64,000 nt of DNA from Clostridia bacterium (lineage in GTDB: Bacteria > Bacillota > Clostridia > TANB77 > CAG-508), in contig JAFWKV010000029.1 of NCBI GenBank assembly GCA_017511265.1, positions 547 to 64,546 on the forward strand. The letters run 5' to 3'. Under the pieces are notes generated by a model. The model was not told the DNA's origin and searched no databases. It saw only the letters and a list, made by a program, of their open reading frames with translations. Below, piece after piece: positions 4,640 through 48,963 of this stretch (position 1 is its first letter; the number at the start of each line of letters is the position of its first letter). A program made the position numbers and the translations under genes.

Positions 4640-4877
4640 GTTGTCAATTGGGACGGTTCTAATTGACAACTTTTTAGCTATTTATTTCTACCTACAGTCT
4701 AACTATATTATAATCATTTATTTTATTAGTGGTTTAATATATAAAATTTTTAAAAAATGAACAGTCAACGCATAAAAATTTTATATATTAAATCCACTAA
4801 TCCATCCATATATTTATTGAATATAATTAAACTGTAGTATGTTGAAGTTGTCAATTAGAACCGTCCCCATTGACAAC
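4640..4877. repeat. ~240-bp composite foldback element with GGGACGG-loop hairpins at both ends (4640-4670 and 4847-4877) and an AT-rich palindromic interior
   Basis: GTTGTCAATTGGGACGGTTCTAATTGACAAC faces GTTGTCAATTAGAACCGTCCCCATTGACAAC in inverted orientation. The interior has its own arms, ATTAGTGGTTTAATATATAAAATTTTTA / TAAAAATTTTATATATTAAATCCACTAAT. Confidence 0.9.
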
Positions 4878-6023
4878 ATCAGCAGGCTTATTTTGACTCG
4901 TTATATAGTCCATTGGTTGTACAGGTGTTCCATTAACTCTAACCTCAAAATGAGCATGTGGTCCTGTAGCATAACCTGTAGAGCCAACCTTTAAAACCGT
5001 ATCTCTTTGTTTCACTTGTTGCCCAACCGTAACCATTATTTCTGAACCATGTGCATACAATGTACTAATTCCACCGCCATGGTCAATAATAACCATATTT
5101 CCATAAGCAGAATTAAATCCAGCCTTTGTTACTGTACCATCTGCTGCAGCTATAAAGTTAGCTCCTGTAGGTGCGCCAATATCAACACCTGTATGCAATT
5201 TATATACTCCTGTTATAGGATGTACTCTCATTTTAAATTCAGATGTAATTTTTGTATAACCTGGAACTGGCCATGCCATAACTCCACCTATATATTCTGG
5301 ACTGATACTGTTTAGTGCTATTGCTCTAATTTCATTTTCTAATGCTGCATATTGGGCATTATATTCATCTATTTTTTTCTGTAAATCTTGTTCTTCTGTA
5401 GATAATTTTTCTATATATTGTGTTCTGATTGTTCTTGTATTTTCAATAACTTTAGCTGTTTTTAGCTGTGTTTGTTTTGCTGTAATCATTTCTTCTTTTT
5501 CTTTGTCAAGTTTTTCTTTTGCAGTTTCAATGTCTTTTTTTTCTTTTCCTACAATGTCAAGTAAATCAGTATCATAAGTTGCAAGTTCTGTTATTAAAAA
5601 ATAATTTGACAAAAAGTCAGCTAAATTAGCAGAAGTTAAAACTACATCAATGTATTGAACGTCTCCTGCTTCATATATAGAAATTAGTCTATTATCTAAT
5701 AATTCTTTTTGTTTGTTATATCTTTCTTCTACATCTTTTAACTTTTCTTGTGTTTCATTAATAGAATCTTGTAGTTGAGATATTTTTGTATTTAAATCAT
5801 TTAATTCATTTTCTGAATTTGCAATAGTTTCATCTAATTTTTGAACTTGTTGTAAATTTGCAGATAGTTCTTGATCTATATTTTGTATTTGCTCTGTAGC
5901 TTCATTTATTTGATTTTTGATTCTTTCTTCTTGCTGTTGCAGTTCAGAACTGTTTGCCCCAAAAGATACTATACTAAAACTACATATAACAAAAGTTAAG
6001 GTTATACATAATAATCTACGCAT
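4851..6023 (-). CDS. Coiled-coil M23 (LytM) peptidase, paralog 3. The last 9 codons are encoded by the repeat element.
   Basis: 390 aa. Signal peptide, coiled coil, and an M23 domain with HTGVDI ... GSTGYATGPHAHFEV. The C-terminus DVVNGDGSN* is read from the hairpin at 4847-4877. Confidence 0.9.
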   Translation of the reverse strand: MRRLLCITLTFVICSFSIVSFGANSSELQQQEERIKNQINEATEQIQNIDQELSANLQQVQKLDETIANSENELNDLNTKISQLQDSINETQEKLKDVEERYNKQKELLDNRLISIYEAGDVQYIDVVLTSANLADFLSNYFLITELATYDTDLLDIVGKEKKDIETAKEKLDKEKEEMITAKQTQLKTAKVIENTRTIRTQYIEKLSTEEQDLQKKIDEYNAQYAALENEIRAIALNSISPEYIGGVMAWPVPGYTKITSEFKMRVHPITGVYKLHTGVDIGAPTGANFIAAADGTVTKAGFNSAYGNMVIIDHGGGISTLYAHGSEIMVTVGQQVKQRDTVLKVGSTGYATGPHAHFEVRVNGTPVQPMDYITSQNKPADVVNGDGSN

Positions 6024-6037
6024 ATTGTAGTCCTTCC

Positions 6038-6943
6038 TTATACTTTTAAGTATTTTCTCATAGAAATTATACTTCCTAAAGCTCCTATTCCTATTCCTAG
6101 TATTAAATATACTATAACTATTAGTGTAAACATATCTGAAAATCTTAGTAAACTCATTCCAATTACTTGCATAAAATCAGTATTTACCATTTTTTCTGCA
6201 ATTACACTATATGCTCCTCCAACTAAACCTAACGAAATCATACCAGCTATAATTCCTATAAAAATACCTTCAACTATAAATGGCCATCTTATAAAACCAT
6301 TTGTTGCCCCAACATATTTCATAATAGAAATTTCTTTTCTTCTAGCATGAACCGTAAGTTTTATTGTGTTTGAAATTATGAATATTGATATTACAACTAG
6401 TAATATTAATATAGCTCCTGTTACTATTCTAACACCATTTGCTAAATTTATTAGTGTGCTGACAGTTTCATCTCTACTTGTTATTTTCTTTATATTTTCT
6501 ATTTTAGAAATTTCATTTTGAACTTGTCCGCTTAAATTTAAATCTGTTAATGTTACAACATAAGATGCTGGGAAAATATTGTTTTGTTCATACCCTTCTA
6601 AAAGATATTCTTTTTCTTTAAATTTTTCCTTCATTTGATTTAAGGCATCTTCTTTTGACACATATTCTACTGTATTTACACCATTTAAGTCTTTTATTTT
6701 TTGCCCGATTTCCTTTATTTCTTCTTCTTTAGCATCATTATTTATATATACTTGTATTCCCTGTGCTGATTCGATTTCCGCAATAAAGTAATTGATATTT
6801 TCTCCAATTATAAAGAATATACCAAAAATTATCATTGTTGCACACATTATCATAAGTGATGCAGCTGTTGATTTTTTATTTTTAAAAACATTTCTAAATC
6901 CTTCACCAATTAAATAACTAAATATATTATACTTCAAAGTCAT
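6038..6943 (-). CDS. ftsX: Cell division ABC transporter permease FtsX
   Basis: Four-TM FtsX topology with a large extracellular loop after TM1. It lies directly downstream of ftsE. The preferred start is ATG 6943 (MTLKYNIF..., after AAGGTGG); the ORF track starts at 6961. Confidence 0.85.
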   Translation of the reverse strand: MTLKYNIFSYLIGEGFRNVFKNKKSTAASLMIMCATMIIFGIFFIIGENINYFIAEIESAQGIQVYINNDAKEEEIKEIGQKIKDLNGVNTVEYVSKEDALNQMKEKFKEKEYLLEGYEQNNIFPASYVVTLTDLNLSGQVQNEISKIENIKKITSRDETVSTLINLANGVRIVTGAILILLVVISIFIISNTIKLTVHARRKEISIMKYVGATNGFIRWPFIVEGIFIGIIAGMISLGLVGGAYSVIAEKMVNTDFMQVIGMSLLRFSDMFTLIVIVYLILGIGIGALGSIISMRKYLKV

Positions 6944-47253: not shown

Positions 47254-47260
47254 TTATATA

Positions 47261-48907
47261 CTACCCCTCAATTATATTTACAATTTGTTTTTCTAATTCC
47301 TTAATTTTTTCATTAATTCTAAACATATCTTCATCTTTTAAATTAACATCTTCTACATCTTTTCTTACATATTCGTCCATATCTTTAAGTTCTTCTTTTA
47401 ATTTATTTAGTCTCTTAATAATTTCTAATTTAATCTTCTTAGTTTTTCTAATATGAATCTTATCTGTCATTTGAATTTCATCACTTAATTCATAGGTTTC
47501 TCCTAAGTCTGGAATTGTTACTCCTATGTTTGTTTCTGTTAATATTTTATCTTTTAATACTTCTTGTGATTCTTCTTCTCCATGAACTAAAAAAATGTGT
47601 TTTGGCTTTTCAATAAATGAATATATAAAGTTCATAAGCCATTCTTGATCAGCATGCCCTGAATAACCTTCTATATATTCAATACGAGCATTTACTGCAA
47701 TTTCTTCACCAAATATTTTTACCATCTTTGCTCCATTAACAATTTTATGTCCTAATGTTCCTGGAGCTTGATATCCTACAAAAAGTATTGTATTACTTGG
47801 ATCCCATAAATTATGTTTTAAATGATGTTTTATTCTTCCAACTTCACACATACCACTTGCAGAAATAATTATGCAAGGTTCTGGGTTTTCATTAAGTGCT
47901 TTTGAATCATCTGCAGTAAGTGTAAACTTTAAATCAGGAAATTCTAATGGATTATCTCCACTTGCAATTAGTTTTTGTGTTTCTTCGTCAAATAAATTCA
48001 TATTCTCTTTAAATACTTCTGTTGCAGAAATTGCGAGTGGACTGTCAACATATACTGGTGCTTTCATTATTTTTTCATATTTTCTTTGGAATTCTTCATC
48101 TTCCTTGTGTTGTTCTTTTAAATTATTAATTTCATATAAAATTTCTTGTGTTCTTCCTACTGCAAATGATGGAATGATTACTGTTCCATTTTTATCTAAT
48201 GTATCTGCTACTATATTTAAAAATTTCTCAGCTTTATTTTGGTCTTGTACATGAAGTCTACTTCCATAAGTAGATTCCATTACTAAATAGTCTGTTTTGT
48301 CTATCATTGTTGGTGAATCTAGTAGTGGTATATCGTTATTTCCTAAGTCCCCAGTAAATACAACCTTTTTTTCTTCTCCATCTTCTTTTATCCATACCTC
48401 AATAATAGCAGAACCTAGCATATGTCCAGCATCATTAAATCTTACATGTATGTTTTCATCTATGTCGTAAATTTCATCATAATTTACTGGTACAAATAGT
48501 TCTAATGACTTTACCGCATCCTCTGCCGTATATAGTGGAGGTATTGGCTTTAAACCTTGTCTTATCCTTTTTTTATTTTTCCATTGAATTTCTGTTTCTT
48601 GAATATGTCCGCTATCTGGAAGCATCAAACTACATAAATCACATGTTGCTTTATGTGTATATATTGGGTTTTTAAATCCCTCATTGTATAGTTTTGGTAT
48701 TCTTCCTGAGTGGTCTATGTGTGCATGTGTTAGCAGCATAAAATCTATTTCTGTTGGATTAAAACTAAATGGTTCATCATTTTCTAATTCCAATTCAGCT
48801 TTTCCTTGGTACATTCCACAGTCTACTAAAAATTTTTTTCCTGCTGCTTCTACTAAAAAGTTTGAACCTGTTACTGTCTTTGCTGCTCCTAAAAACGTAA
48901 TTTTCAT
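47261..48907 (-). CDS. MBL-fold beta-CASP ribonuclease (CPSF73/TTHA0252-like)
   Basis: 548 aa with the metallo-beta-lactamase motif HAHIDHSG, beta-CASP motifs and the C-terminal motif HGE. Confidence 0.8.
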   Translation of the reverse strand: MKITFLGAAKTVTGSNFLVEAAGKKFLVDCGMYQGKAELELENDEPFSFNPTEIDFMLLTHAHIDHSGRIPKLYNEGFKNPIYTHKATCDLCSLMLPDSGHIQETEIQWKNKKRIRQGLKPIPPLYTAEDAVKSLELFVPVNYDEIYDIDENIHVRFNDAGHMLGSAIIEVWIKEDGEEKKVVFTGDLGNNDIPLLDSPTMIDKTDYLVMESTYGSRLHVQDQNKAEKFLNIVADTLDKNGTVIIPSFAVGRTQEILYEINNLKEQHKEDEEFQRKYEKIMKAPVYVDSPLAISATEVFKENMNLFDEETQKLIASGDNPLEFPDLKFTLTADDSKALNENPEPCIIISASGMCEVGRIKHHLKHNLWDPSNTILFVGYQAPGTLGHKIVNGAKMVKIFGEEIAVNARIEYIEGYSGHADQEWLMNFIYSFIEKPKHIFLVHGEEESQEVLKDKILTETNIGVTIPDLGETYELSDEIQMTDKIHIRKTKKIKLEIIKRLNKLKEELKDMDEYVRKDVEDVNLKDEDMFRINEKIKELEKQIVNIIEG

Positions 48908-48929
48908 TTATATCATCCTTTCTTGTAAT

Positions 48930-48963
48930 TGATTTTTTTGACACAACCCCGACCCAAAAATCA
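48930..48963. repeat. Degenerate GGGACGG-type hairpin (loop GGGTCGGGG on the minus strand)
   Basis: In TGATTTTTTTGACACAACCCCGACCCAAAAATCA, the stem is TGATTTTT/AAAAATCA. It is intergenic. Confidence 0.55.

Follow-up and report, generated by a model that had tools for sequence, protein, structure and literature searches.

Which kind of element places the same short G+C-rich motif repeatedly between the housekeeping genes of an A/T-rich genome? The question was raised by a 64,000-nt stretch of DNA (hereafter the window) from Clostridia bacterium, contig JAFWKV010000029.1 of assembly GCA_017511265.1, which has a G+C content of ~29%, is 90% coding and carries nearly all its genes on the minus strand. 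The heptamer GGGACGG or its complement CCGTCCC was present at 19 exact matches in this 64-kb window, against 0.35 expected and a maximum of 2 in dinucleotide-preserving shuffles. Three extra copies were degenerate, at 22263-22289 (GGGACAGG), 48930-48963 (GGGTCGGGG) and 42523-42545 (GGGGACGC, the left half of 42523-42578). Sixteen of the 19 matches were non-coding, three lay within the last 12 codons or fewer of an open reading frame (ORF), and none was found in a gene body. An initial annotation of this DNA had described about 20 copies, extragenic or clipping gene ends; both points held, and every copy was found where it had been placed. The repeat family is real and strongly non-random, and appears to be undescribed. 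It is read here, at about an even chance, as a lineage-specific palindromic repeat of the type of repetitive extragenic palindromes (REPs) and their hairpin-forming doublets (REPINs), read sequence-specifically by a trans-acting factor.

The hairpin module and its inverted doublets

Related loci were collected by scanning a genome collection for TTTTGGGACGGGNNAAAAAA, with one genome per GTDB species, yielding at least 94 loci. Among the matches listed, 68 loci were from 17 low-GC (25-33%) uncultured Clostridia or 'Clostridium sp.' metagenome-assembled genomes (MAGs). In the related loci the search pattern fixed the loop and the inner T4/A6, and unbiased covariation was that of the outer pairs and of the window's class-B copies. 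The basic module was a hairpin of 31-35 nt, NN-TGT-N5-GGGACGG(GGC)-N5'-ACA-NN, with an A/T-rich stem of 10-12 bp. A local self-complementary stem of 7-13 bp was present at 17 of the 19 heptamer matches, and two half copies (17374 and 24746) were among the matches. The stems had been assigned to unrelated classes, a division that was refuted by alignment: class A (TGT-TTTTT-GGGACGG-GGCA-AAAAA-ACA) and class B (TGT-CAATG-GGGACGG-GCTT-AATTG-ACA) align gap-free in the common frame TGT-N5-loop-N5-ACA, with compensatory changes. Over 92 distinct units from the window and its relatives, 86.6% of the cells of a 12-bp helix were paired, compared with 79.3% in shuffles, and changes on both sides were seen at 9 of the 12 helix pairs (at pair 4-32, G:C 29, A:U 18 and C:G 14). 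The covariation score was 0.207 against 0.081 in shuffled sets, a value reached by none of 500 shuffles; slid controls scored 0.015-0.094. These scores bore out the earlier description of an invariant loop on covarying stems. The hairpin module is under selection for pairing as well as for sequence, and the conserved unit is ~27 nt, not a heptamer. Individual units had folding energies from -7 to -13 kcal/mol (z-scores from -5 to -7). Single modules carried GGGACGG on the G-rich (sense, lagging-template) strand in 33 cases against 14, a count that includes orthologues and is indicative only.

Fourteen of the 19 matches were the arms of seven inverted-repeat doublets of 81-360 bp; an eighth doublet (42523-42578) was compacted and degenerate. 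When neighbouring matches within 500 bp were tabulated for the window and the 68 low-GC loci, 37 pairs were oriented +-, none -+, four -- and one ++, so that doublets were ordered GGGACGG...CCGTCCC in 37 cases and in none the opposite way. Same-strand neighbours were mostly short tandem or compact forms. The arms of the seven window doublets were 94-100% complementary over 34-102 nt (the element with 102-nt arms has a further 27 nt at 89%), and both arms shared class and sub-variant in all eight window doublets. Two elements with arms ~80% alike by eye (identity not computed) each had perfectly matched arms of their own. The evolutionary unit is the doublet, a pair of like modules with a variable spacer between them. 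The 5' arm, alone or with the loop, was repeatedly found partly duplicated in tandem, with a 10-nt or 17-nt period (Table 1).

The 81-nt doublet was predicted to fold as one continuous hairpin of -41 kcal/mol as DNA and -56 kcal/mol as RNA, compared with -7.6 kcal/mol (DNA) for a single unit. As the lowest-energy fold of a doublet is one long hairpin, the heptamer is predicted to be paired with its partner and not exposed in a loop. The claim that it always sits at the tip of a stem was therefore correct for the local stems at 17 of the 19 matches and incorrect for the predicted doublet folds. This REPIN-like arrangement is the strongest argument for the REP analogy, yet it undermines the premise that the motif is always in the loop.

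The cores of the long doublets at 19797-20052 and 33293-33506, 13 kb apart, were homologous, asymmetric, ~95 nt long and oppositely oriented, with wholly different central hairpins. A common asymmetric core at two non-adjacent elements indicates that a composite element has been dispersed. The shared G+C-rich core (...GCGTAGGCGGAGCGAAGCG...AAGCGACAACAAGGTCGT) was located at 19876-19973 and 33354-33445 and had no Rfam match. An exact metagenome scan with the inner-core 19-mer CGCTTCGCTCCGCCTACGC for an autonomous parent gave 13 matches, all unrelated and mostly high-GC.

Turnover, conservation and distribution

Doublets were gained and lost between related species. The units at 29613-29657 and 10869-11228 were missing at the matching junctions of related locus L042, and the unit at 33293-33506 was missing at that of L056. 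A 7-nt gap of the window (47254-47260) corresponded to a junction at which L065 holds a doublet with a 46-nt spacer, and L076 was filled where L054 was empty. Doublets also decayed to compact forms and single hairpins by deletion between directly repeated arms. The compact forms (L072, L021, L054 and window 42523-42578) were doublets minus the inner arm and the spacer, and a doublet faced a single module at one junction in L094/L038, L039/L085, L074/L093 and L003/L075. Both modules of a doublet share arm sequences in direct orientation, so slipped deletion readily makes a single module of either polarity. Intergenic regions that carry an element measured 89-361 nt and were almost all element, whereas most element-free operon gaps were below 30 nt. 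Since the element fills nearly the whole of its gap and the other gaps are short, the doublet and its spacer are suggested to have entered as one piece.

Nineteen orthologous module pairs from related species differed at 6 of 589 positions (~99% identity), and at 3 of 247 positions free of the search pattern. Divergence around these modules was ~8-12% in the flanks (mostly coding) and ~17% in the doublet spacers. Modules diverge roughly ten-fold more slowly than their flanks, which favours selection of some form. Variant modules with an A.C mismatch (GATG...CACC) were inherited unchanged in both species (L043/L068 and L026/L087); their identity indicates that the copies were vertically inherited and kept, and are not recent re-insertions.

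The family was confined to one clade, with lineage-specific variants. The module in the low-GC MAGs was NN-TGTTTTTT-GGGACGGGGC-AAAAAAACA-NN, and the hosts of the module-bearing MAGs (at least 17 at species level) were rabbit, chicken, sheep and other animal guts. The outer stem was mostly GGTG/CACC in the two most-sampled rabbit MAGs (Lapin-028 and Lapin-010); several BRZ MAGs had mostly GCTG/CAGC or ACTG/CAGT, and the window, like some others, had GATG/CATC. Over 582 bp the window matched the end of JAFYBZ010000014.1 (Clostridia MAG RGIG6952, sheep rumen) at 100% identity. Most of the 26 higher-GC matches listed look like chance; two do not. L022 (60% G+C) carries ACCAGTCTTTTT-GGGACGGGGC-AAAAAAGACTGGT at 5888-5926, in the leader of a YgiQ-like radical-SAM gene, and L061 (46% G+C) carries a shorter version at 7019-7050, between a -10-like TATAAT and a Shine-Dalgarno sequence. 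These copies may be relics of an ancestral state with few copies, or may have spread horizontally.

Viral contigs gave one chance match only, inside a gene, and BLAST of a doublet against plasmid and phage collections gave no match. Rfam had been suggested earlier as a check. A gathering-threshold scan of the window returned two tRNAs only, and E-value scans of two long elements returned only sub-threshold matches to generic long hairpins (miRNA precursors); no family was matched. A preQ1-II match at 19750-19873 was rejected as noise (25 bits against a gathering score of 47). Literature searches by the sequences TTTTGGGACGG or CCGTCCCAAAA turned up papers on primers and miRNAs, none of them related. 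Contigs of MAGs and metagenomes often ended at or near modules, as is to be expected when a dispersed repeat breaks assemblies; that of the representative MAG stops ~300 nt past the 36652-36732 doublet, and the window runs 27 kb further.

Essentially all window ORFs were searched with Pfam and NCBIfam, and the functions matched were all housekeeping ones: the N and C halves of transketolase, QueA, Tgt, RNase R, HolA, MurB, a CofD/YvcK-like protein, IleS, a P-type ATPase, mini-RNase III, RbgA, FtsK and MutL. Seven sizeable ORFs had no Pfam match above the gathering score and no NCBIfam match; they are lineage-specific and have no obvious tie to the repeats. Three tandem paralogues of a PcsB-like coiled-coil and M23 peptidase (2150-6023) lie downstream of ftsE/ftsX. 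Five ORFs end inside modules. Module density was uneven, with zero modules in 49000-64000 despite several intergenic gaps of 120-420 nt. Features are collected in Table 1.

Table 1. Repeat elements and associated features of the window, followed by features of related loci (L numbers).
Feature	Position	Strand or modules	Setting	Remarks
Class-B module doublet	4637-4880	4640-4670 (+), 4847-4877 (-)	between second and third PcsB-like M23 paralogues	arms 36 nt, 94% complementary; interior itself an imperfect palindrome; right module holds stop codon of ORF 4851-6023
Class-A module doublet, 50-nt spacer	8728-8845		between tktN and tktC	arms 34 nt, 94% complementary; tktN ORF runs through right module, which encodes its last 12 codons
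360-bp near-perfect palindrome, class-A modules at both ends	10869-11228		between convergent genes	arms 102 nt, 97%, and 27 nt, 89%; central hairpin 11014-11087
Class-B module doublet	17284-17371		between queA and tgt	arms 34 nt, 97% complementary
Half class-A module (5' arm and GGGACGGAG)	17372-17392	-		fused to class-B doublet 17284-17371; heptamers spaced 17 nt, same 17-nt register in L004
Long doublet	19797-20052	19815-19850, 20001-20036	arms extend to stop codon of RNase R gene	arms 79 nt, 100% complementary; core asymmetric, 98 nt
Degenerate single module, loop GGGACAGG	22263-22289	-
Truncated single module, decayed 3' arm	24744-24776	-		contains stop codon of holA-like ORF
Single module, extended 12-13 bp stem	29613-29657	+	between murB and yvcK/CofD-like gene
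Long doublet	33293-33506		between convergent SPFH-family gene and ileS	arms 61 nt, 100% complementary
Minimal doublet, two perfect class-A modules, 13-nt spacer	36652-36732		between 774-aa ORF and ileS	arms 34 nt, 100%; 774-aa ORF stop is the TGA of module start GTGATG; 100% identical to L049
Compacted class-B doublet	42523-42578		upstream of P-type ATPase gene	5' arm with degenerate loop GGGGACGC, 6 nt, full minus-orientation module
Single class-B module	43240-43268	-	between rbgA and mrnC	contains rbgA stop codon
Degenerate single module, loop GGGTCGGGG	48930-48963	-
ORF end within module, tktN	8808-8845
ORF end within module, PcsB-like peptidase	4851-4877
ORF end within module, holA-like gene	24764-24776
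ORF end within module, rbgA	43243-43268
ORF end within module, 774-aa ORF	36729-36732
ORF without family match	14509-16122
ORF without family match	18430-19752
ORF without family match	22289-22993
ORF without family match	31520-32137
ORF without family match	36729-39053
ORF without family match	48982-50565
ORF without family match	57596-58027
Partial tandem duplication	17357-17392
Partial tandem duplication	L004 2583-2616
Partial tandem duplication	L005 ~1660-1700
Partial tandem duplication	L033 ~3400-3440
Partial tandem duplication	L040 ~150-190
Contig end at or near module	L049 (contig end)
Contig end at or near module	L118 1-46
Contig end at or near module	L001 23-42
Contig end at or near module	L036 41-60
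Contig end at or near module	L004 2574-2593

Mobile repeat or host element

If the family is a REP/REPIN-like repeat, doublets would spread as single-stranded hairpin intermediates. Each doublet would enter a very short intergenic gap as one piece, without target duplication, either between a stop codon and the next Shine-Dalgarno sequence or between convergent genes. At the inspected doublets no consistent target-site duplication, conserved flanking nucleotides or conserved target was found. Surviving module positions are kept far better than neighbouring DNA, so the module is most likely read sequence-specifically by a trans-acting factor, which would recognise ~27 nt of it. By analogy, the preferred candidate would be a single-copy HUH/Y1 nuclease, similar to the REP-associated tyrosine transposases (RAYTs), acting on the folded single strand with GGGACGG as its tag. 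As a side effect, doublets would put strong hairpins at the cistron boundaries of operons and could affect processing and stability. The strong conservation of copies would imply a benefit to the host or a cost of damage, for which operon mRNA processing and stability is the candidate effect.

The statement that no transposase or RAYT-like gene is present in the window agreed with the Pfam and NCBIfam scans, in which nearly all ORFs were covered and no transposase was found. For the related loci, an IS200/IS605 profile was built from IS608 TnpA (checked against PDB 2A6M) and two homologues, and six-frame ORFs were searched. Over 863 kb nothing was obtained below E = 0.1, although a profile this small may miss divergent RAYTs. 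A search for multi-copy ORF families near units, over the 564 kb of low-GC loci, found none; what it turned up were split genes and tandem paralogues. L062, with two same-strand units 1.3 kb apart, was considered as a possible insertion sequence (IS) and rejected, since the units merely flank an ordinary gene.

Several observations weigh against a REP/REPIN-like repeat. Neither the window nor the 863 kb of related loci, around ~110 units, yielded a RAYT, IS200/IS605 or other transposase. The conserved motif lies in the loop and is not the unpaired 5' GTAG or CGTC tag of the described REP super-families. Spacers of different doublets within one genome were mostly unrelated, which is awkward for recent transposition of whole doublets. 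No insertion polymorphism was seen at the one site compared, queA/tgt: three further assemblies of near-identical strains had the same 128-nt spacing. The L022 and L061 copies are isolated, with loop GGGACGGGGC and a T/A inner stem on a different outer stem, in unrelated MAGs. The ~99% identity of individual copies, inherited mismatches included, points to host-level selection, unexpected for purely selfish DNA.

Such selection is the basis of a rival explanation, held to be possible but rather unlikely, in which the module is a host cis-acting element that owes its origin and its upkeep to the host. A dedicated RNA- or single-stranded-DNA (ssDNA)-binding protein would use it at cistron boundaries as a site for binding or processing, for mRNA punctuation, selective stabilisation or 5'/3' end protection. 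Orthologous modules ~99% identical next to ~90% in flanks and 83% in spacers, with inherited variants kept, agree with it. Single modules were located directly on stop codons or 2-6 nt upstream of the Shine-Dalgarno sequence, and the isolated same-loop copies lie in 5' leaders of unrelated MAGs. Perfect double-stranded RNA (dsRNA) of 31-34 bp is an RNase III substrate, and doublets would be predicted to form dsRNA of this grade. However, half of the doublet modules show the complementary loop CCGUCCC in mRNA, and stem mismatches in the sense reading had no bias of G.U over A.C (G.T 18, A.C 19). Presence and absence at orthologous housekeeping junctions mean that no given site needs a module. 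Outer stems change in concert within genomes, and composite elements with common cores occur at unrelated loci, which also disagrees with a host site.

Inverted repeats of 31-100 nt around variable interiors, in elements placed between genes, would also be expected of a conventional miniature inverted-repeat transposable element (MITE). The doublet would then be a deleted derivative of an IS with a DDE transposase, and its terminal inverted repeats (TIRs) would happen to be hairpins. TA was present at both ends of ~5 of ~20 inspected doublets (e.g. L065, L094, L039 and L023), where it is indistinguishable from stem extension. Together with any other duplication this amounts to only ~1/4 of inspected doublets, and the flanks hold no conserved target. 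No parent IS or multi-copy ORF was present among the loci examined, and the self-complementarity and covariation within each TIR are left unexplained. A MITE is accordingly judged unlikely.

A short G+C-rich motif strongly over-represented in an AT-rich genome, with frequent inverted pairs downstream of genes and lineage 'dialects', recalls a recognition site on double-stranded DNA. This could be a DNA-uptake sequence (DUS), or a site for a nucleoid, gyrase or partition-type protein, with inverted pairing as incidental as in Neisseria DUS pairs. Such a site is very improbable: none of the 19 copies is in a gene body though the window is 90% coding, the flanking stem covaries, which makes single-strand pairing the conserved property, and the unit is ~27 nt rather than a heptamer.

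Ordinary intrinsic (rho-independent) terminators sharing sequence by chance or descent, rejected already by the initial annotation, are scarcely credible: the hairpins do follow stop codons, and relatives have ordinary bidirectional A-tract/stem/T-tract terminators at the convergent junctions 10869-11228 (L042 ~4290-4340) and 33293-33506 (L056 ~2560-2620), but here the T-run and A-run form the stem (T6/A6-7), with the sole block of G+C between them in the loop, and what comes after the stem on both strands is A-rich or unrelated sequence instead of a U-tract. Co-directional operons hold most copies, beside the next Shine-Dalgarno sequence, and terminators do not share nearly the same sequence across scores of loci and 17 genomes. 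attC and CRISPR readings were rejected on geometry.

A more far-reaching proposal is advanced tentatively and is itself doubtful. The modules might constitute a third, loop-tagged REP-type super-family, kept in a clade of gut Clostridia by a dedicated protein that reads the ~27-nt hairpin TGTTTTTT-GGGACGGGGC-AAAAAACA. This protein could be a new branch of HUH nucleases or a hairpin-specific RNA- or ssDNA-binding factor, doublets would serve the host as punctuation of operon transcripts or as markers of gene boundaries, and L022 and L061 would retain the ancestral low-copy state that preceded the family's expansion. Interest would grow considerably if the partner were a new enzyme or RNA-processing factor. 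The elements also have practical consequences: they break MAG assemblies, give housekeeping proteins stop codons and short C-terminal tails, place hairpins predicted to be very stable inside essential operons, and would be good strain and lineage markers for the clade.

Comparison with known systems

IS200/IS605 ends and their derivatives (palindrome-associated transposable elements and MITEs) resemble the modules in being hairpins presumed to be read on ssDNA, without target duplication. Those hairpins are direct-oriented by a conserved 4-5 nt target, whereas here the modules are inverted, no flanking target is conserved and the 863 kb searched yielded neither tnpA nor tnpB. The earlier proposal of a REP or IS200/IS605-like element was thus right in that REP-type repeats are the closest analogue; IS200/IS605 geometry does not fit, and the GTAG/CGTC tag is absent. 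HUH Rep origins of circular Rep-encoding single-stranded (CRESS) DNA viruses and rolling-circle plasmids likewise have an invariant loop on varying, covarying stems, but are single on small replicons, in contrast to the hundreds of chromosomal intergenic copies here. BOX, RUP and SPRITE (Streptococcus), Correia (Neisseria) and ERIC elements are also small intergenic non-coding repeats, co-transcribed and forming RNA hairpins. They are modular elements, or elements with TIRs and target-site duplications, and are not known to have an invariant loop motif. No sequence similarity to any of them was detected, and Rfam gave nothing.

REP/REPIN systems are known almost only from Proteobacteria, in which they go together with RAYT transposases and a GTAG tag at the end of the repeat. 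The REP/REPIN systems of Proteobacteria (RAYT/TnpA-REP Y1) share with the present family imperfect palindromes of 20-40 nt at high extragenic copy number, inverted doublets of one preferred orientation that are foldable as one long hairpin, variable spacers, singletons as remnants, lineage-specific variants and copies that persist at orthologous sites. They differ in the unpaired 5' GTAG, where GGGACGG here occupies a loop of 11-13 nt, and in lacking the A/T homopolymer stems and the uncultured Clostridia host. REP super-families were described as carrying a terminal GTAG or CGTC tag and as present in 8 phyla (Di Nocera et al., 2013; PMC3733652); neither Firmicutes nor Clostridia is named in the main text of that paper. 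REP families there form mostly one type of inverted dimer with spacers of 20-100 bp, often variable, singletons are dimer remnants, and REPs lie between unidirectional and convergent ORFs (PMC3733652). Group 1 RAYTs do occur in Clostridia, and only groups 2 and 3 are REP-associated (Bertels et al.; PMC5581495).

CGTC REPs, which include Neisseria dRS3 and Rickettsia RPE-4/6 and have no known transposase (PMC3733652), are alike in forming mainly one inverted dimer type, in stems that start with A/T pairs and in the lack of a known dedicated transposase, and the complement CCGTCCC of the present motif contains CGTC. Their terminal unpaired tag, loops of 4-5 nt and CCA tail are absent here. The family therefore matches REP/REPIN organisation point by point and departs from it in the tag. 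REPIN-type doublets with an invariant motif in the loop, in uncultured low-GC gut and rumen Clostridia, can be accounted for in two ways: the REPIN lifestyle may have had an independent origin that involved a different enzyme, or hosts may keep such hairpins for their own purposes.

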